A stretch of 64,000 nucleotides of DNA from Gammaproteobacteria bacterium (lineage in GTDB: Bacteria > Pseudomonadota > Gammaproteobacteria > Steroidobacterales > Rariloculaceae). Both the position numbers and the translations under genes were made by a program. This document shows positions 3,163 through 59,900 of this stretch, piece by piece. Positions within the stretch are counted from its first letter, which is position 1. Every line of letters begins with the position of its first letter. The notes below the pieces were generated by a model. It was not told where the DNA came from. It did not search any database and was given only the letters and a program-made list of their open reading frames with translations. The stretch is from positions 6,646 to 70,645 of the forward strand of contig DASQOL010000030.1 in assembly GCA_035644475.1 (NCBI GenBank), written 5' to 3'.

Positions 3163-5265
3163 ATGGTGGCGGAGTACCAAGATCGAACCGTGATGCGCGC
3201 GGTCGACGCGCCGAAGCCTCCGGCGCCCGCGAAGGTTCGCGACATCCTCGAGTACCGCACAGGGCTCGACGATACGCTGCCGCCGACTCCGCTGCGGGAC
3301 CTGCTGTCGGCGAGTGGCGCGAACGTCTTCGTGTTGTCCGTCGACGCGGAGCTGCAAGAGACCGTGCAGCGCGCCGGCGGCGATCAATATCCCGTCTACA
3401 CGGTCGCCGACTGGGGCGAGCTGCGCGCGGCGATCGAAGGAGGGCGCTGCGGCATCGCCGTGCTCGACGCCGCATTGCTCGGCCAGGCGCTTGCGCGGCG
3501 CATCGCGGAGCTCGAGCGATTCGAGGATCGGCTCGTCACGCTCGTCGCCGCGGATCGCACCGACGCGCAGAACCTGATCGGCTTCTTGTCGGATCGCAAG
3601 ATTCATCGGCTGCTGATCAAGCCTCCGGCGCTCGGTATCACGCGGTTGCTGCTCGAATCGGCGGTGAGCCGCTGCATCCAGCTGCGCGAGCGCGCCGAGT
3701 CGCCCGGTTCCGTTACCACGCAGAGGACCGAGGTCCGGCCGCGCGCGGCCGCCGCGATTCGCTCGGGCGCGTCTCGGCTGCCCTCCTGGTTGCTGGCGAC
3801 CGCATTGGTCTCGCTCATGATCGGCGCGGTGCTCGTCGCGAGCTTCAAGCCCCTATGGCCGAGCAGTCCGAGCGGACAGCGCAGCGACGCCACTGACGTT
3901 CGGGGGGCCGTCGCGCCCGTCGGTGCGGCCGTCGAGACGGCCCCTGCGGCCGATCGCTTCGCCGACCTGCTCGCGCGCGCCGACCGCGCTTTCAGCGAAG
4001 GCCGCTTGACCGAGCCGTCCGGAGACAACGCGCTCGACTACTACCTCACCGTTCTCGCCGTCGATCCGTCGCACTCCCTCGCGCGCGAACGCCTCACGAT
4101 GGTTCTCGATGCCCTGTTCGCACAGGCGGAAGCGGGGCTGCTCGACAACTCGCTCGAAGTCGTCGCCGCGGCGCTCGCGGCCGTGCGTCGCGCGGACCCG
4201 CAGAGCGGCCGACTCGCGTTCCTCGACGCCCAGCTCGAGCGCGCGCGCGCGGCGAACAAGGCGTCGGCAGCGCTGCGCGCATCGACCGCGTCGGCGCCGG
4301 CGGCGGAGCCCGCCGCCCCGCCGGCCGAAGCCGCCGTCCGGCGTCCGCAGCAGGGAGAGCTCGACAGCCTGCTGACGATTGCCGCCGCCCGCATGCAACG
4401 GGGCCAGCTCGTCGAACCCGCAGGCGACAGCGCGCGCGACTACATCGCGCGCGCCGCGCAGTTGAGCCCCTCCGACGCGGGCGTCGCGCGCGCACGCGCG
4501 GACCTGTTGTCGGCGCTCGTGACCTCCGCTGGCGCGGTGCTCAAGGCGGGCAACGTGGACGCTTCCGCGGCGCTGCTCGACGAAGCGCGCAAGCTCGGCG
4601 CCAAATCGGACTCGCTGGCGCTCGTGGACGGCGAAGTGGTCGCGACGCGCGCGGCGCGGGCCGAGCAGCGGCGCGCGGCGATGCTCGCGACGGCGCGTGA
4701 GCGGCTCGCGAGCGGCGCGCTGATCACGCCTGCCGGCGGAAGTGCGCTCGATCAACTGCTCGCGCTGGAGGCAGACTCGCCCGATTCCGCCGAAGCGCGT
4801 CCTGTGTGGGCGGAGCTCATGCAGGCGATCACCTCGAACGCGACCGCGGCACTTGCCCGCGGCGATTCGGCGGGCGCCGACGGGTGGATCGCGGCGCTTG
4901 CCCGCTCCGGGCGCGACACCGCCAACGCCGACGCGCTGCGCCGCCAACTCGACACGATGCGCTTGCGGCAGCAATACCTCGCGAACTGGTCGCCGTCGAG
5001 CGAGCTCAGCCTGTTGAGCTACGCGAGGCCCGTCTATCCGCGCGAGGCGCAGATCGACGGCGTCGAAGGTTGGGTGGACCTCGAGTTCATCGTCGACCTC
5101 AACGGCAGGCCGCGCGAGCTCCGCGCGGTGGAGAGCCAGCCGAACGGGCATTTCGAGCGCGCCGCGCTCGCCGCCGTGGCCCAGTACCAGTACGAGCCGT
5201 TCGTCCGGGGCGGCGAGGTTTTCGAGCGCCGAGTGCGGCTACGCATTCGCTTTACGCTCCAGTAG
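3163..5265 (+). CDS. Membrane protein with an N-terminal receiver-like domain, one TM helix, three Ala-rich helical repeats and a TonB C-terminal domain
   Basis: The C-terminus YPREAQIDGVEGWVDLEFIVDLNGRPRELRAVES...AALAAVAQYQYEPF is a TonB_C signature. Residues ~54-170 look receiver-like (VFVLSVDAE, GIAVLDAALL, RLLIKP). The TM helix is LPSWLLATALVSLMIGAVLVASF. Three repeats carry EPSGDNALDYY / EPAGDSARDYI / TPAGGSALDQL. Confidence 0.75.
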   Translation: MVAEYQDRTVMRAVDAPKPPAPAKVRDILEYRTGLDDTLPPTPLRDLLSASGANVFVLSVDAELQETVQRAGGDQYPVYTVADWGELRAAIEGGRCGIAVLDAALLGQALARRIAELERFEDRLVTLVAADRTDAQNLIGFLSDRKIHRLLIKPPALGITRLLLESAVSRCIQLRERAESPGSVTTQRTEVRPRAAAAIRSGASRLPSWLLATALVSLMIGAVLVASFKPLWPSSPSGQRSDATDVRGAVAPVGAAVETAPAADRFADLLARADRAFSEGRLTEPSGDNALDYYLTVLAVDPSHSLARERLTMVLDALFAQAEAGLLDNSLEVVAAALAAVRRADPQSGRLAFLDAQLERARAANKASAALRASTASAPAAEPAAPPAEAAVRRPQQGELDSLLTIAAARMQRGQLVEPAGDSARDYIARAAQLSPSDAGVARARADLLSALVTSAGAVLKAGNVDASAALLDEARKLGAKSDSLALVDGEVVATRAARAEQRRAAMLATARERLASGALITPAGGSALDQLLALEADSPDSAEARPVWAELMQAITSNATAALARGDSAGADGWIAALARSGRDTANADALRRQLDTMRLRQQYLANWSPSSELSLLSYARPVYPREAQIDGVEGWVDLEFIVDLNGRPRELRAVESQPNGHFERAALAAVAQYQYEPFVRGGEVFERRVRLRIRFTLQ

Positions 5266-5576: not shown

Positions 5577-5646
5577 GGGTCTGACCCCATTTCGCGTGAC
5601 CCCCCGCGGCCTTGCGCGGCGGGTCGTGCGAAATGGGGTCAGACCC
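5577..5646. repeat. 70-nt hairpin-forming inverted repeat with 19-bp perfect arms
   Basis: GGGTCTGACCCCATTTCGC (5577-5595) is the exact reverse complement of GCGAAATGGGGTCAGACCC (5628-5646). The 32-nt spacer is itself partly self-complementary (CCGCG...CGCGG). Further TGACCCC copies flank it. Confidence 0.7.
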
Positions 5647-7066: not shown

Positions 7067-8482
<1,416 letters not shown>

Positions 8483-8573
8483 CCCCGAAAAATAGGGACA
8501 TGTTGCCTTTTTCGGCGAAGCCCTCGGACAACCGATGGCGGGTCGCCGAAAAATGCAACATGTCCCTATTTTC
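8483..8573. repeat. Short copy of the AAAATAGGGACATGTT palindromic element; likely a bidirectional terminator-like hairpin
   Basis: GAAAAATAGGGACATGTTGC-C-TTTTTCGGCGA (8487-8518) pairs with TCGCCGAAAAA-T-GCAACATGTCCCTATTTTC (8543-8573) around a 24-nt loop. It fills exactly the space between the prsR-like stop (TGA 8480-8482) and the glrR stop (8574-8576). Confidence 0.85.
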
Positions 8574-9947
8574 TTACCGGCTGTCTTTGAACTGCTCGGG
8601 GTTGAGCTGGTGGCGGCCGAGCAGCTTGTAGAAGTCGGTGCGGTTGCGCTTCGCGAGACGCGCCGCCTGACTTACGTTGCCGCCGGTAATCTGCAACAGC
8701 TGCGAGAGGTAGTTGCGCGTGAATTCGTCGCGCGCTTCCGAGAACGACGGCAGCGCGTTGGCTTGCTCGCCGAGCGCGCTTCGCACCTGCTCCGTCGAGA
8801 TCACGCGCGTCGGGGATAACGCGACGTTCTGGCGTACCACGTTGTAGAGCTGACGGATGTTGCCGGGCCAGTGGCTCGCCACCAGGAGCTCGACGGCCTC
8901 GGGCGCGTACACCTTGCGCTCCTGACCCGACTCCGCCGAGATCTGTACGAGGAAGTGGTCGACGAGCAGCGGAACGTCCTCGCGCCGCTCGCGCAGTGCA
9001 GGCAGCTGGATGTTGACGACGTTCAAGCGATAGTAGAGGTCCTCGCGGAACGCGCCCTTGATCATGAGGTCTTTCAAGTCCTGGTGCGTTGCCGAGATCA
9101 CGCGCGTGTTGACCTTGACGGCGTCGGTGCTGCCGACGGGCCGAACCTGCTCCTCTTGCAGCACGCGCAAGAGCTTCACCTGCAGGCGCATCGGCATGTC
9201 GCCGATCTCGTCGAGCAGCAGCGTGCCGCCGTGGGCCGCCTGGAACAAACCCTTGTGGGTGCGGTGCGCGCCGGTGAACGCGCCTTTCTCGTGACCGAAG
9301 AGCTCCGACTCGAGCAGATTCTCGGCCATCGCGCTGCAGTTGATCGCTACGAACGCGTTGTCCTTGCGCGTGCTCGCGCGATGGATCGCGCGCGCCATGA
9401 GCTCCTTGCCCGTGCCGGACTCGCCCGTGATCAGCACGCGCGTGTCGCCGCTTGCCACCATGCGCGCCTGCTGTAGACACGCCTCCATAGCGGGGCTGCG
9501 CGTGATGATCTCGGCGCTCCACTCGTCCTCGCTCTTCGGGAGGCCCGAGACCTTCATGGCCTTCTCGACGTACTCGAGCAGCTGCTGCTTGTCGACGGGC
9601 TTCGTGAGAAAGCCGAACGCGCCGCTTTGCGTCGCCTCGACGGCGTCGGGGATCGTGCCGTGCGCCGTCAACAGCAACACGCAGAGCCCGGGTCGCTGCC
9701 GTTGGATCTCCTTGAGGAGCGCGATGCCGTCCATGTTCTCCATGCGGAGGTCGCTGATCACGAGATCCGGTCGAAACCGGGACAGCGCCGCGAGCGCCTC
9801 CGCTGCGCTCTCGACCGCCTCGACGTCGTAGTGCTCGGCACGCAGCCGGATGCTCAAGAGTCTGAGCAGTCCCGGGTCGTCATCGACTAAGAGGATCCTT
9901 CCTCGCGGCAGATCGTGGCCCGCCGGCCTATTTTGGATTTGCACCAT
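8574..9947 (-). CDS. glrR: Sigma-54-dependent response regulator GlrR/QseF type
   Basis: [19 protein letters not shown]...[14 protein letters not shown]...[53 protein letters not shown] and the C-terminal [35 protein letters not shown] closely track E. coli GlrR as I recall it. The ATG at 9947 is preceded by GAAAGGGAAA. Confidence 0.85.
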
Positions 9948-19134: not shown

Positions 19135-19229
19135 TCCGCGCCGCCGATTTGGCGTCGCTGCGACCCTGTGCGGCGAGAGTCTCGCGAAGGCCCTTCGAGG
19201 TACGACCGCCGCCGTCGCGCGCATCGCGT

Positions 19230-43436: not shown

Positions 43437-43565
43437 GCGCGCGCCTCGGAGGCAACGAACGCTCCGAAGCAAATACACACACGTGTCGCAAACCGCCGGC
43501 GGGGTGCCCCGGAAACGGGGTCGTTGACGGGGACGCGTGGAGGATCAACCCAACAGGAGTGTTCC

Positions 43566-54123: not shown

Positions 54124-54568
54124 CGACAAGACCATCGACATCAAAGGCATCCTCGAACGTCTGCCGCACCGTTTCCCCTTTCTCATGGTGGATCGCGTGC
54201 GCAGCGTGACCGCCGGCAAGTCGATCGTCGCGCTGAAGAACGTGACCGCGAACGAGGCACACTTCGAGGGGCATTTCCCCGGTCATCCGGTAATGCCCGG
54301 CGTGCTCATCATCGAGGCGCTCGCGCAGGCCGCGGGGGTGCTCGCGTGGGAGAGCGTGACGGACGAGGAGCGCCTCTGGATCCTCTACCTGGTGGGCATC
54401 GACAAGACGCGTTTCAAGCAGCCGGTGATGCCCGGTGATCAGCTCGTGCTCAACGTGGAGCTAGTGCAGCGCCGGCGGAACCTGTGGCGATTCGAGGGCC
54501 GCGCCGAGGTCGACGGCAAGGTCGTGGCTGCCACGGACCTTCTGCTCGCGGACGGGCCCAAACCTTGA
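54116..54568 (+). CDS. fabZ: 3-hydroxyacyl-ACP dehydratase FabZ
   Basis: [17 protein letters not shown]...[26 protein letters not shown]. Confidence 0.95.
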
Positions 54569-55335
54569 TCGATCCGCGAGCCGTCGTCGCCCCCGACGCG
54601 CGTCTGCACGAGAGCGTGACGGTCGGTCCGTACGCCGTCATCGGCCCCGACGTCGAGATCGGGCGCGGCACGCGCATCGAGCCGCATGCGGTGGTCAAGG
54701 GGCCGACGGTCATCGGCGAGGACAATCACATCTTTCAGTTCGCCTCGATCGGCGACGACCCGCAGGACAGAAAGTACAAGGGCGAGCGCACGATGCTCGT
54801 GATCGGCGACCGCAACACGATCCGCGAGTTCGTCACGATGAATCGCGGCACGGTGCAGGAGCAGGGCGTCACGCGCGTAGGCAACGACAACTGGATCATG
54901 GCGTACGCGCACGTCGCCCACGACTGCGTCGTCGGCAGCAACACGATCTTCGCGAACAACGCGTCGATCGCGGGACACGTGCACGTCGGCGACCACGCGA
55001 TTTTGGGCGGCTTCACCGCCGTGCACCAGTTCTGCCGGATCGGCGCGCATTCGATGACGAGCATGTTCAGTTATCTCACGAAGGACGTGCCCGCCTACAC
55101 GATGGTGTCGGGCCGCCCGGCCGAGCCGCGCGGCATCAACGCCGAAGGGCTGAAGCGGCGCGGCTTCACGCCGGAGCAGCTCCGTAACATCCGCGAGGCC
55201 TACCGAACGGTGTTCCGGCTCGGCCTGAATCTCGACGAGGCGATCGCTGACGTCGAGAAGCGCCTGCTCGAGCAGCCCGAGCTCCAGCTGTTCGTCGACT
55301 CGCTCCGAGCCGGCTCCCGCGGCATCGCCCGCTAG
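54565..55335 (+). CDS. lpxA: Acyl-ACP--UDP-N-acetylglucosamine O-acyltransferase
   Basis: The TTG start overlaps the fabZ stop (TTGA). (M)[32 protein letters not shown].. is a hexapeptide-repeat region. The C-terminal helical domain contains GLKRRGF..EQL..IREAYR. Confidence 0.9.
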   Translation: MIDPRAVVAPDARLHESVTVGPYAVIGPDVEIGRGTRIEPHAVVKGPTVIGEDNHIFQFASIGDDPQDRKYKGERTMLVIGDRNTIREFVTMNRGTVQEQGVTRVGNDNWIMAYAHVAHDCVVGSNTIFANNASIAGHVHVGDHAILGGFTAVHQFCRIGAHSMTSMFSYLTKDVPAYTMVSGRPAEPRGINAEGLKRRGFTPEQLRNIREAYRTVFRLGLNLDEAIADVEKRLLEQPELQLFVDSLRAGSRGIAR

Positions 55336-55810
55336 CGGAAAATAGGGACATGTTACTTTTTCGGTCCGGTGCTTCTTCGGCCGATCGGCGGTCGCGCCTC
55401 ACGATGGCCGGCGCTGGCGTCGCGGTGGCTGCGGTCGCACCTCGAACGAGACGTGTGACGCCTCCGCCGCGGCACGCGACTTCGCCGGCCTTCGGCCGGT
55501 CCCCTCGCCACGGCGCGTTCGCCGGGGTCCAAAACGCGGTCGCTTATTTGGTTCGCTTCGTAGAGCCGGTGTGCCGCCGCGTTTTGGATGCTCGCCTGCG
55601 GCTCGCCCCCGGGCGCTGCGCGCCCGGGCTCCGCGGCTCTCGGCGCTGTGGCTCGGCTCGTCGCTACCGCCGCGGCGGAGGCGTCACACGTCTCGTTCGA
55701 GGTGCGACCGCAGCCATTGCGCGCATCGCGCGGCCCAAAGTGAGCCACGAGCCGATCGGTGCCGGTCGAACGTTGGCGCGCGCGAAAAAGTAACATGTCC
55801 CCATCTTCTT
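55336..55810. repeat. Long copy of the AAAATAGGGACATGTT nested palindromic (foldback, MITE/ERIC-like) element
   Basis: The termini at 55336-55364 and 55783-55802 are inverted repeats. CCGATCGG occurs at 55381-88 and 55752-59. A perfect 47-bp inverted repeat lies at 55426-55472 / 55670-55716. An inner inverted repeat lies at 55528-39 / 55577-88. The termini and the CCGAT(G/C)GGCGGGTCGC segment match the short copy at 8483-8573. Confidence 0.85.
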
Positions 55811-56958
55811 CTGGGCTGCGCGTTGCGGTGGCGGCGGCCGAGGCTTCGGGCGATACGCTTGGAGCGGGGCTCATCGAGGCGTTGCGCGAGCGCGAGGCCG
55901 GCGCGGAGTTCTACGGCGTGGCGGGGCCGCGGATGATTGCGGCGGGGTGCGAGCCGTGGAATCGGGTCGAGGAGATCTCCGTGATGGGGTTTGCGGAGGT
56001 GCTGCCGCATCTGCCGCGGCTGCTCAAGCTGCGGCGCAACCTGATACGGCGGATCGAGGGCAGCGGCGCGAGCGTGTTCGTCGGCATCGACTCGCCGGAC
56101 TTCAATCTGCCGATGGCGAAGAAGCTGAAACGCGCCGGTATCCCAACCGTTCAATACGTGAGCCCCCAGGTTTGGGCGTGGCGGCAGTCGCGCGTGAAGA
56201 GTATCCGCGCGTCGGTCGATCTCGTGCTCTGCGTGCTGCCGTTCGAGACGAAGTTCTACGAGGAGCACGGCGTCCGTGCCAAGTTCATCGGCCACCCACT
56301 CGCGGACGCGATCCCACTCGAGGTCGACCGGCGCGCGGCCCGCGAGGCGCTTGGCGTGCCGTTCGACCGGCCGCTGCTCGCCGTGCTGCCGGGCAGCCGC
56401 CGTAGCGAGGTCGGCAGTCTCGCGGCGCCGTTCTTGGGCACGGCCGCGTGGCTCGAGCGCGCGCACCCCGGGCTCGAGATCGCGGTCGCGCTCGCGAGCG
56501 AGGCCGTGGGCCAGGTGTTTCGCGAGGCCGCGCGCGGCGTGGCTACCGCCAAGCCGCCGCACCTGATCGTCGGCCGCGCGCGCGAGGTCATGGCCGCGGC
56601 CGACGTCGTGCTCACGGCGTCGGGCACGGCGAGCCTCGAGGCCCTGCTGCTCAAGCGGCCGATGGTCGTCGCCCACCGGATCGAGCCCCTGACCTACTGG
56701 ATCGTGCGCCGGCTCGGTGTGGCGAAGCTGCCGCATTTCTCGCTGCCGAATCTGCTCGCGGGCCGCAACGTGGTGCAGGAGTTCGTGCAGGACCAAGTGC
56801 GGCCGGAGGTCTTGGGCCCCGCGCTTCTGTCGCTCCTCGAGACCCAAGAGCTCGGCCGCGGCTGGTATGATGCGTTCGCCACCATCCACCGACAATTGCG
56901 CTGCGACGCTAGCAGAACGGCCGCGCGCGAGGTGCTCGAGCTCGTACGGGGACGCTAG
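55795..56958 (+). CDS. lpxB: Lipid-A-disaccharide synthase
   Basis: MSPSSSGLRVAVAAAEASGDTLGAGLIEALRE... is colinear with the E. coli LpxB N-terminus (..[23 protein letters not shown]). The ATG lies inside the right terminal repeat of the palindromic element, and no SD is visible. Confidence 0.85.
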   Translation: MSPSSSGLRVAVAAAEASGDTLGAGLIEALREREAGAEFYGVAGPRMIAAGCEPWNRVEEISVMGFAEVLPHLPRLLKLRRNLIRRIEGSGASVFVGIDSPDFNLPMAKKLKRAGIPTVQYVSPQVWAWRQSRVKSIRASVDLVLCVLPFETKFYEEHGVRAKFIGHPLADAIPLEVDRRAAREALGVPFDRPLLAVLPGSRRSEVGSLAAPFLGTAAWLERAHPGLEIAVALASEAVGQVFREAARGVATAKPPHLIVGRAREVMAAADVVLTASGTASLEALLLKRPMVVAHRIEPLTYWIVRRLGVAKLPHFSLPNLLAGRNVVQEFVQDQVRPEVLGPALLSLLETQELGRGWYDAFATIHRQLRCDASRTAAREVLELVRGR

Positions 56959-56961
56959 GAC

Positions 56962-59900
56962 GTGAGCGGTTTCGTGCATTTGCGGGTGCACACCGAGTAC
57001 TCGCTCGTCGACAGCGTCGTGCGTGTCGACCCGCTGGTCGAATCGCTCGAGCGGCAGCGCATGGCCGCGTGCGCGATCACCGACCAGGGTAACGTCTCCA
57101 CCCTCGTCAGATTCCACAAGACTGCCGTGGCGCGCGGCATCAAGCCGATCGTCGGCGCCGACGTGTGGGTCGCCGAATCGGCCGACGACCGCGAGCCGTC
57201 GCGACTGGGGCTGCTCTGTCAGAACCGCGCGGGGTTCAAGCGCTTGAGCGCGCTGCTGACGAGGAGCGCCGCGCTCGGCCCGATCCGCGGCCGTCCGGCG
57301 ATCTTGCGCGACTGGCTCACGGTAGACGCGCTCGAGGGCCTCATCGGGCTCTCCGGTGCCCAGGCGGGCGAGCTCGGCAAGGCCTTGAGCGGCGGGGGCC
57401 GTGACGCGCGGGCGGCCGAGATCTTGGACTACTGGCGCACGCTGATGCCGGGCCGCTTCTACGTGGAGCTGCAGCGGCTCGGACGGCCGAACGAGGCGGA
57501 CTACGTGGCGCGCGCCGTCCACCTCGCCGCGGCGACGGCCGCCCCGGTCGTCGCCACCAATGACGTCTGTTTCCTGGAACGCGGCGACTTCGAGGCCCAC
57601 GAGACGCGCGTCTGCATCGGCCAGGGCGTGACGCTCGACGACTCCGCGCGGCCGCACGACTACACCGACGAGCAGTACCTGAAGTCGGCCGGTGAGATGG
57701 CCGCGCTGTTCGCGGACTTGCCGGAAGCGCTGCGCAACACGCTGGAGATCGCGAAGCGCTGCACGCTCGAGGTCGACCTGGGCAAGGTGTTCCTGCCGGA
57801 CTTCGCGACGCCCGACGGCCAGCCGCCGCGCGCCTACCTCGAGCAGCGCGCCCAGCAGGGGCTCGACGAGCGCTTGCGGCAGCTTGCGGTGCCCGAGCAG
57901 CACGTGCCGCGCTACCGCGACCGGCTCGCGGCCGAGCTCGGCGTGATCGCGAAGATGGGCTTCGAGGGCTATTTCCTCATCGTCGCCGACTTCATCGCCT
58001 GGGCGCGCGAGCACTCGATCCCGGTGGGTCCCGGCCGCGGCTCGGGCGTCGGCTCGCTCGTGGCCTATGCGCTGCGCATCACCAATCTCGATCCGCTCGC
58101 GCACGATCTTTTGTTCGAGCGGTTCTTGAATCCCGAGCGCGTCTCGCTCCCGGACTTCGACATCGACTTCTGCATCGAGGGCCGCGACCGCGTCATCGAC
58201 TACGTCGGCCGGCGCTACGGCCGCGAGCGCGTGTCGCAGATCGTGACCTACGGCACGATGGCGGCGAAGGCCGTGGTCCGCGACGTCGGCCGCGCGCTCG
58301 GGCATCCGTACGGCTACGTCGACCGCATCGCGAAGCTCATCCCGTTCGAGATCGGCATCACCCTCGACAAGGCGCTCGCGGACGACGCCGAGCTCCGCGG
58401 CATGTACGAGTCCGACGACGAAGTGCGGGGCCTGATCGACCTCGCGCGCCGGCTCGAAGGGCTCGCGCGCAACATCGGCACGCACGCGGGCGGCGTCGTG
58501 ATCGCGCCCGCGGCGCTCACCGAGTTCATGCCGCTCTACGCGATCGACACCGGGCTCCTCACCCAGCTCGACAAGGACGACCTCGAGGCAATCGGCCTCA
58601 TCAAGTTCGATTTCTTGGGGTTGAAGACGCTCACGATCATCGACAAGGCGGTCGCGGCGATCAACCGTGAGCGCGCGGCGCGCGGCGAAACGCCGATCGA
58701 CATCGACGCGATTCCGGTCGACGACGCGAAGACCTACGAGCTGCTCCGGCAATGCAAGACGACCGCCGTGTTCCAGCTCGAGTCGCTCGGCATGCGCGAT
58801 CTCATCAAGCGCCTGCAGCCCGATCGTTTCGACGACCTCACGGCCATCGTCGCGCTATTCCGCCCCGGCCCGATGCAGATGGCCGACGAGTTCATCAACC
58901 GCAAGCATCTGCGCGGCGTCGCCACGGACTACCTGCATCCGCGCCTCGAAGGGATCCTGAAGCCGACCTACGGCGTGATCCTCTACCAAGAGCAAGTGAT
59001 GCAGATCGCGCAGGTGCTCGCGGGTTACTCGCTCGGCGGCGCGGACCTGCTGCGGCGCGCGATGGGCAAGAAGAAGCCGGAGGAGATGGCGCTGCAGCGG
59101 GCGGTGTTCTCGAAGGGCGCGGTCGAGCGCGGCGTCGAGGAGGCGCGCGCGAGTCACATCTTCGACCAGATGGAGACGTTCGCCGGCTACGGCTTCAACA
59201 AGTCGCACGCGGCCGCTTACGCGCTGATCGCCTATCAGACGGCGTGGCTCAAGGCGCACTATCCCGAGGCGTACATGGCGGCCGTGCTCACCGCCGACCT
59301 CGACAACACCGATCGGCTCGTGGTGCTCAAGGACGACTGCAGGCGCTTCGGCATCAGCCTCGAGCCGCCCGACGTCAACACGTCGGTGTTCGCGTTCACC
59401 GTCCCCGGGCCGAAGCGCATCAGCTACGGCTTGGGCGCCTTGAAGGGTGTGGGGCAGATGGCCGTCGACGCGCTCGTCGCGGAGCGCGCGGCACGCGGCC
59501 CGTACAAGGACCTGCTCGACCTCTGCCGCCGCGTGGATCTGCAGAAGATCAACCGGCGCGTGCTCGAGGCGCTCGCGCGTTCGGGGGCGCTCGACGCTCT
59601 CGGAGCGAACCGCGCGACGCTGCTCGCGTCGATCCCCGATGCCTTGCAGCTCGCGGAGCGGGCGGGGCACGCGGCCGCGGCCGGGCAGGGCGGGCTGTTC
59701 GCCACCGACGATGTCGACACCACGATCGAGCTCACGACGCCGGTGCAGCGCGAGTGGACGAAACGCGAGCGCCTGCAAGGAGAGCTCGACAGCCTCGGGC
59801 TGTACCTCACGGGTCACCCGTTCGAGGACTACGCGGGCCACTGCGAGAAATTTACGAACAACCCGATCGCCGGCGTTCTCGGGCCGCCGCCGGCCGAAGG

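Follow-up and report, generated by a model that had tools for sequence, protein, structure and literature searches.

REPINs are recognized by conserved inverted ends around a less conserved spacer, by the capacity to form a hairpin and by compensatory changes (PMC3116915). In the CREE/NEMIS elements of Neisseria an inverted repeat surrounds a core; they lie near genes with which they are co-transcribed, their long hairpin can be bound or cleaved by RNase III, and they can alter the expression of neighbouring genes (PMC2649163). Homogenisation of inverted-repeat arms by template switching has also been documented (PMC5941160). Against these systems we set the DNA between lpxA and lpxB in a 64,000-nucleotide stretch (the window) of contig DASQOL010000030.1 from a Gammaproteobacteria bacterium (assembly GCA_035644475.1). 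The spacer is noncoding, self-complementary repeat DNA built in layers, with family A outermost, family C arms inside the family A spacer and family B at the apex of the family C hairpin. It holds at least two unrelated repeat families nested in each other, and probably three. In our view the spacer is likely to be tolerated repeat DNA that carries an exapted lpxB start codon, rather than a dedicated regulator of lipid A synthesis.

The lpxA stop codon (TAG, 55333–55335) directly abuts the repeat and the lpxB ATG lies at 55795, leaving a gap of 459 bp that agrees with the palindromic insert of about 460 bp described in the original prediction. The parts of the locus, with the evidence for each, are as follows.

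54565–55335, + strand: lpxA (256 aa); gene table of identical contigs, Hexapep/Acetyltransf_11 Pfam matches and open reading frame (ORF) list.
55336–55364, strand not applicable: left unit of family A (REP-like), CGGAAAATAGGGACATGTTACTTTTTCGG; motif search and family census in a related metagenome-assembled genome (MAG).
55365–55388, strand not applicable: left remnant of the copy-specific family A spacer, with CCGATCGG (55381–88) as its 3′ end; also present in the orthologous element of loci L086, L088 and L089.
55389–55473, strand not applicable: left arm of the inner hairpin, with family C modules CCTCAC..GGCC and GGCTGCGGTCGCACCTCGAA; inverted-repeat search, and modules recurring elsewhere without the core.
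55474–55668, + strand (sense is the window + strand): family B core, a conserved multi-helix segment of ~195 nt; BLAST and pattern copies, alignment, consensus fold with covariation, and covariance model.
55669–55751, strand not applicable: right arm of the inner hairpin, perfect over 55669–55716 and imperfect beyond, with GGCCCAAAGTGAGCC; inverted-repeat search.
55752–55782, strand not applicable: right remnant of the family A spacer, with CCGATCGG (55752–59) as its 5′ end; comparison with orthologous elements.
55783–55810, strand not applicable: right unit of family A, CGAAAAAGTAACATGTCCCCATCTTC, whose palindromic ACATGT holds the lpxB ATG (55795–55797); inverted-repeat and motif searches, relatives and Pfam.
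55795–56958, + strand: lpxB (387 aa), starting within the repeat; Pfam LpxB (E = 6.7e-106) and an identical protein on three contigs.

Folded as RNA, the spacer had a minimum free energy of -337.6 kcal/mol (z = -13.9), and none of 100 dinucleotide shuffles folded as well. The nested pairs proposed in the original prediction were found with little change. The terminal repeats pair over 26 nt at 92% (55338–55363 with 55783–55808), CCGATCGG is present at both 55381–88 and 55752–59, and TCCAAAACGCGG (55528–39) pairs with CCGCGTTTTGGA (55577–88). The inner repeat, given before as 47 bp, is indeed perfect and is 48 bp long (55426–55473 with 55669–55716); it forms the inner part of arms of 82 nt (55392–55473 and 55669–55750) that are 83% complementary overall. 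The CCGATCGG pair flanking the inner element may be a target duplication, and as it is self-complementary both readings are possible. In the window the terminal motif has four occurrences where 0.00 were expected, and it belongs to the outermost family, A, only.

Protein-coding ORFs in the spacer (147 aa on the + strand, 173 aa on the - strand) were considered and rejected: the region is palindromic, and copies of family B show single-nucleotide indels within conserved blocks. In Rfam, t44 alone passed the gathering threshold in the window, and a permissive scan of 55250–55900 gave only chance-level matches (E ≥ 3.3). Plasmid, phage and viral collections held nothing resembling the inner element.

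The start of lpxB lies within the repeat. Counted from ATG 55795, the Pfam LpxB domain begins at residue 11. Ahead of it just two canonical starts are in frame, ATG 55795 and GTG 55759, both within the right arm; neither is preceded by a GGAG-type Shine-Dalgarno (SD) sequence. The earlier proposal of an lpxB start in the right terminal repeat that lacks an SD holds for ATG 55795; GTG 55759 is a second canonical candidate. From the ACATGT ATG of the right unit the reading frame is open in the window and in L086, L088 and L089, and in the window the T-run of the right unit has decayed into lpxB codons (CATCTTCTTC). A consensus scan of the insert detected no sigma70 promoter, in a class of scans that is weak and unreliable in high-GC bacteria.

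Searches for further copies and for empty sites in relatives, which the original prediction had proposed, yielded both, the junctions of L084/L085 and L087 being plain. The junctions, with LpxB identity to the window, are as follows.

L084/L085: LpxB 91%; plain 42-bp spacer, start MSRLRV.., GGAG SD (L084).
P0010: LpxB 81%; 32-bp gap, start MSALRI.., from the gene table only.
L087: LpxB 79%; plain 61-bp spacer, GTG start,.SQLRI..
L086: LpxB 85%; family A doublet at the same site with the same copy-specific spacer (GGTCCG.G.CTTCTTCGGCCG) and family C arms; the apex is a 6-nt loop.
L088: LpxB 85%; same outer layers; the apex is ~110 nt of unrelated sequence.
L089: LpxB 88%; contig starting inside the element, the right half showing the same outer layers.
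P0008: LpxB 86%; 332-bp gap, known as a gap length only.
Window: same outer layers; the apex is the family B core.

Since the copy-specific spacer is common to several lineages, the outer layers represent one ancient insertion and not parallel ones, and the left spacer remnant (55365–55388), which is common to L086, L088 and L089, must be older than the insertion at the apex. Compared with the plain junctions, among which an SD was seen in L084 only, the insert-bearing junctions have lost the ancestral SD and start. The comparison thus shows that insertion of the outer layers replaced the start region of lpxB, whose predicted start is now the ATG of the right unit. Deleting 55389–55759 in silico left a family A doublet of normal size, with ~90 nt between the unit cores.

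The sequence of events would then be that the ancestor of the clade acquired the outer layers, with loss of the ribosome-binding site and start of lpxB itself, and that the ATG in the ACATGT of the right unit was taken over as the putative start, a step shown by the comparison. The family B core would have reached the apex later and in the window lineage, through insertion or through ectopic conversion from a paralogous core-bearing hairpin. A copy at L079, from the same metagenome, has arms ~98% identical to those of the window, which makes ectopic conversion between family C hairpins a simple route for the core. On the co-transcript the insert would pair with itself and so draw stop and start together: the lpxA stop lies 1–2 nt ahead of the stem, and the lpxB start ~13 nt inside the opposite strand, at the stem base. 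In terminating on lpxA, a ribosome would open this base and may reinitiate at the lpxB start, so that the two genes would be translationally coupled. This coupling, which we only infer, is the weakest part of the explanation.

A second gene has apparently received its start in the same way. At L057, a FAD_binding_3 oxidoreductase (3480–4619, - strand) starts at the ATG of a family A unit; its FAD_binding_3 domain, with the Rossmann motif, follows ~6 residues after this ATG, and no other canonical start lies between. The geometry resembles that at lpx, with a stop codon just ahead of the hairpin and a start in the 3′ arm at the base of the stem, which suggests that a stop before the hairpin and a start in its 3′ arm is a general way in which these genomes live with their repeats. 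At L060, a DusB-like gene starts 12 nt past a family A unit, too close for an SD.

Family A was surveyed by a pattern scan for TAGGGACATGTTRC(N)TTTTTCG across one genome per species, in a collection that does not include the window's own genome. The scan gave 64 stretches, 63 in the soil MAG Gammaproteobacteria bacterium SMAG_U1377 (DASUFK01), to which the coding DNA of the window is ~81% identical, and one in another MAG. The unit is ~27 nt long (GAAAAATAGGGACATGTTACTTTTTCG), and ~156 units were present in the extracted loci at ≤2 mismatches, resolving into 66 inverted pairs and 24 singles; 62 of the 66 pairs span 72–93 nt. The units are conserved. Their spacers could not be aligned between copies and are mostly self-complementary beside the units (e.g., CGGCCGTG/CACGGCCG and CGCGCG/CGCGCG), and complementarity tends to continue for a few bases outside the units. 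A short repeated palindromic unit, an extragenic bias, more doublets than singlets at a set spacing and a compensated spacer are the marks of REPINs, and their presence in family A shows the outer layer, at the level of sequence, to be REPIN-like. The second copy of the terminal motif that the original prediction had placed near 8558–8576 proved to be part of a complete doublet of this kind.

8486–8573, strand not applicable: short ordinary family A doublet forming a ~90-bp hairpin; motif search, folding and gene context.

The hairpin (8478–8582, z = -8.7) is strongly folded, and the doublet fills the entire gap between two convergent response-regulator genes.

The doublets keep a close relationship with gene ends. 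Genes were called by a home-made GC3-based caller (GC3, third-position GC content) that recovered those already known in the window, and just 3 of 64 doublets lay within a predicted gene. Doublets were enriched between convergent genes (19/53, against 56/249 for all spacers) and depleted between divergent ones (5/53 against 51/249). In about 25 of 64 cases the stop codon of the neighbouring gene is the unit's own TAG (TAGGGACATG), for instance at L006 5427, L008 1662, L030 2067 and L048 1112 in MAG DASUFK01. Other neighbours stop at a TGA or TAG that directly precedes the A-run, and its complement (TCA or CTA) appears in mirror position across the hairpin. Between tandem genes the doublet often occupies the whole spacer, and the SD or start of the next gene follows 2–15 nt past the unit. 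As doublets habitually abut gene ends, the position between lpxA and lpxB is typical of family A, and their frequency within tight tandem gene pairs argues against strong termination. A consensus scan for intrinsic terminators gave none at 8350–8700 and one chance-level site in the family B core, the T-run within the stem of family A lying outside the model of the scan.

Variants of the unit also occur. A sister unit, GGGACATGCTGC, was seen, as were tandem and nested arrangements. At L016 56–228 and L066 4862–5005, doublets contain a nested sister unit and a tandemly duplicated core (e.g., GGGACATGCTGGGACATGCTGG and CAGCATGTCCCAGCATGTCCCAGCATGTCCCC), and the duplication suggests slippage within units. 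In the window, a perfect hairpin at 5577–5646, with a 19-bp stem and a 32-nt loop, is built on GGGTCTGACCCCATTTCGC and has relatives at L030 4961–5125 (GGGACTGTCCCCATTTTCGA); it looks like a REP-like family that is sister to family A.

The inner layers belong to other families. Positions 55427–55752 match L042 1924–2245 (83% over 328 bp) and L053 209–448 in DASUFK, and neither of these family B copies sits between family A units. Scanning soil metagenomes with the invariant 28-mer of the family B centre gave 16 further stretches; many copies are at contig ends, as would be expected of repeats that break assemblies. A covariance model recognized ~20 distinct cores above 30 bits, on the sense strand only and with noise at ≤23 bits, the window containing one; when used to search for diverged cores, it returned only copies already found by BLAST. 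In one subgroup the arms end sharply at GTTTC...GAAAC, and in the other, which includes the window copy, the arms are made of the family C modules CTCACTTTGGCCG and GGCTGCGGYCGCACCTCGAA. Family C modules were also found without any core at L086, L075, L088, L024 and L057, and as a fragment in the window.

19194–19228, strand not applicable: intergenic fragment like a family C arm, 31/35 identical to 55696–55730; similarity search.

This fragment lies just upstream of a DusA-like ORF and is a solo arm, with no partner or core nearby. Long hairpins lacking a core, as pre-existing targets, were found for the family C type only (L086 and L075), and not for arms of the GTTTC type. At L082 5340–5352 and L083 1355–1367, copies of the GTTTC type with unrelated arms both have GTGCCAG directly outside the right arm, which may mean that certain targets are preferred or that the mobile unit extends slightly further.

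Arms closing the family B core were perfect in all 13 complete copies, over 27–48 bp, and over 25 bp in the contig-end copy L070, and they contained no G:T pairs. Between copies the same arms are only ~61% identical, and at L053 a 5-nt deletion in one arm is matched in the other. The original prediction had traced the well-preserved inner arms to selection, gene conversion or recent origin. Their preservation is real and calls for a special explanation, and it is a property of the family rather than of the lpx locus. From their sequences we infer that the arms have been kept complementary by concerted evolution at the DNA level, through template switching between arms during replication. Since perfection, exclusively Watson-Crick pairs and mirrored indels are found family-wide, they can be accounted for without invoking selection on lpx expression. 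The unique arms had no match elsewhere in ~630 kb, and the idea that they are guides or copies of other loci was rejected.

The core, of ~195 nt, behaves differently from the arms: it is 93% identical between copies, except for one internal loop at 56%. Its consensus fold has nine helices, in which 98.3% of cells are paired compared with 33–52% when the partners are slid. Double-compensatory cells numbered 46, whereas column shuffles gave 11.4 and none of 500 shuffles reached 46, a contrast whose significance is overstated as the copies are related. Four invariant or near-invariant G:U pairs allow pairing on one strand only, and the sense strand folds better by ~4 kcal/mol in 9 of 12 copies. 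Thirteen of the 16 copies with interpretable context follow a same-strand gene at a distance of 46–134 nt; three are antisense or in divergent spacers. Paired copies are always (+)(-) between convergent genes (L074 3309–3930, L082 4684–5340 and L083 670–1355), each member being sense to the gene upstream and having unique perfect arms of its own.

It is possible, though clearly less likely than tolerated repeat DNA, that the family B core is a functional structured RNA of 3′ untranslated or intercistronic regions, serving for example in the stabilisation or processing of mRNA, with the long stem as part of the RNA; this role would then account for the core's location behind lpxA. The nine-helix fold with its compensatory cells, the G:U pairs that pair on one strand only, the match of the covariance model to the sense strand only, the location of copies downstream of same-strand genes and as (+)(-) pairs between convergent genes, and the conservation of the core at 93% against 56–61% for the internal loop and arms are all in keeping with this. 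However, the covarying pairs lack G:U intermediates and the closing stems lack G:T pairs, as expected from palindrome correction in DNA; the folding advantage of the sense strand is mild; Rfam contained no relative; and there are the antisense and divergent copies and the overstated shuffle significance. A function of the core as RNA or as single-stranded DNA is a serious possibility that is compatible with tolerated layered repeats and an exapted start. A bolder combination, which we hold to be rather unlikely, would make family B a new class of mobile structured RNA or single-stranded DNA element, a ~195-nt head on a copy-specific perfect stem made at or after insertion (e.g., by inverted target duplication or by landing in hairpin apices). 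In this lineage, palindromic repeats lying between a stop and a start codon would act as spacers that excise themselves at the RNA level, and essential genes such as lpxB would be translated by termination and reinitiation across the base of the 460-nt hairpin, using a start that the repeat has donated.

Several observations weigh against tolerated repeat DNA with an exapted start, the reading that we prefer. By LpxB identity, the insert-free relative P0001 nests beside the window; a single-event history was rejected on this ground, as the LpxB tree contradicts it, and one gain needs a later loss or recombinational replacement. The family B core shows clear purifying constraint and a bias in sense orientation, so its own function may matter here. 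Coupling is geometrically marginal, as unwinding from the lpxA stop would reach ~55345 and the partner of the ATG is at 55349–51. The outer layers and the start within the stem persist in at least four lineages, which selection for a regulatory hairpin could explain. Finally, neither a RAYT nor another transposase was detected in ~630 kb around all exact-match loci, using tblastn with an E. coli RayT probe and a scan for the HUH...Y-x-x-x-N-P motif, in a MAG that is fragmented.

We consider it doubtful that selection has shaped the hairpin into a cis-regulatory RNA device for lipid A synthesis, a role of the kind raised in the original prediction. It would serve as an RNase III site, as an attenuator or as a translational gate, with the lpxB start hidden in the stem and the LpxA:LpxB ratio set in this way. 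The start codon is paired within a very stable predicted stem, neither an SD nor a sigma70-like promoter was found in the insert, the in-stem ATG is kept with the outer layers in those diverged lineages, and Correia repeats can be RNase III substrates that affect neighbouring genes (PMC2649163). Yet dozens of other, unrelated junctions carry these families, the insert is missing from the closest relative and from two outgroups, and the apex differs by lineage (6 nt, ~110 nt or the 195-nt core). The perfection of the arms, being family-wide, gives no evidence of selection at lpx.

Still less probable is that family A is not REP/REPIN but a classical miniature inverted-repeat transposable element (MITE) moved by cut and paste and belonging to a DDE transposon (IS630/Tc1-like or other) that duplicates a TA target. 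Family A has terminal inverted repeats and a high copy number, and nearly every copy has its core (GGGACATGTTAC...GTAACATGTCCC) flanked on either side by TA, a dinucleotide that is itself self-complementary. However, the sequence beyond the unit is inverted-complementary and not directly repeated, and conservation extends to the A-run and T-run that lie outside the TA. The interiors are unrelated between copies, whereas those of MITEs descend from a parent element. No full-length or transposase-bearing partner with family A ends was seen, and the lone 787-bp pair (L061) encloses an ordinary gene. The earlier description of the insert as a foldback MITE-, ERIC- or Correia-like element is right in so far as these are dispersed foldback repeats; the insert combines several nested families rather than forming a single MITE-like element.

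An assembly artefact, a check on which had been called for, is next to inconceivable: assemblers can generate long palindromes and many family B copies are located at contig ends, but one ENA and two JGI assemblies, each made independently, show 100% identity over 750 bp across the spacer, and diverged orthologous versions exist in four other assemblies.

Elsewhere in the window, a t44 RNA (RF00127, 65.7 bits) at 43458–43549 is an ordinary gammaproteobacterial feature unrelated to the spacer. The gene dnaE directly follows lpxB (56958–56962) with a 3-nt gap and no rnhB between, as in all relatives examined.

These results imply that a host can survive the stacking of selfish palindromic repeats, one within another, at a single junction between operon genes of an essential pathway, and they bear on how operons tolerate insertions. 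The start that the repeat appears to have donated to lpxB has been kept across lineages whose LpxB is only ~85% identical, and the same family of repeats has likewise supplied the start of a second, unrelated gene and many stop codons. For annotation, start and stop calls beside such repeats can be misplaced, and contigs break at them. The family B core is the part most likely to reward further study: its combination of a covarying fold, hypervariable yet perfect stems and a sense bias downstream of genes had no counterpart in Rfam, in the plasmid, phage and viral collections or among the repeat families compared here.

Among known systems, REP/REPIN comes closest to family A, which is likewise a short imperfect palindromic unit, present at least tens of times per genome, nearly always outside genes, and mostly arranged as inverted doublets at near-fixed spacing around a poorly conserved, compensated spacer, with some singles. 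It differs in that no RAYT was found in the ~630 kb flanking the exact-match loci, that the unit is unrelated to described REPs, that units overlap gene ends (TAG stops, and ATG in two genes), and that other hairpin families lie in the spacer. With CREE, the family B copies have in common an inverted repeat around a conserved core close to genes, but there is no sequence similarity, and the conserved core with hypervariable arms of family B is the reverse of the terminal repeats that define CREE. The host lineage also differs at the phylum level, and CREE has an IHF site, promoter-generating ends and TA duplication. ERIC/IRU and BOX are, similarly, imperfect palindromes of ~100–300 bp, intergenic or intercistronic and tolerated in operons, yet neither a sequence match nor an Rfam match to them was found, and the window element consists of several nested families. 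As in concerted evolution by template switching (PMC5941160), the arms are perfect within a copy and diverged between copies, with mirrored indels and Watson-Crick pairs only. That process is documented mostly for short inverted repeats, whereas here the arms are 25–48 bp long and ~195 nt apart, and the process is read from sequence. The locus is thus of a known kind, that of REPIN/MITE-like intergenic palindromes, and is set apart by the recurrent donation of starts and stops, one of the starts being that of an essential gene, and by a family B core borne on a perfect but variable stem.

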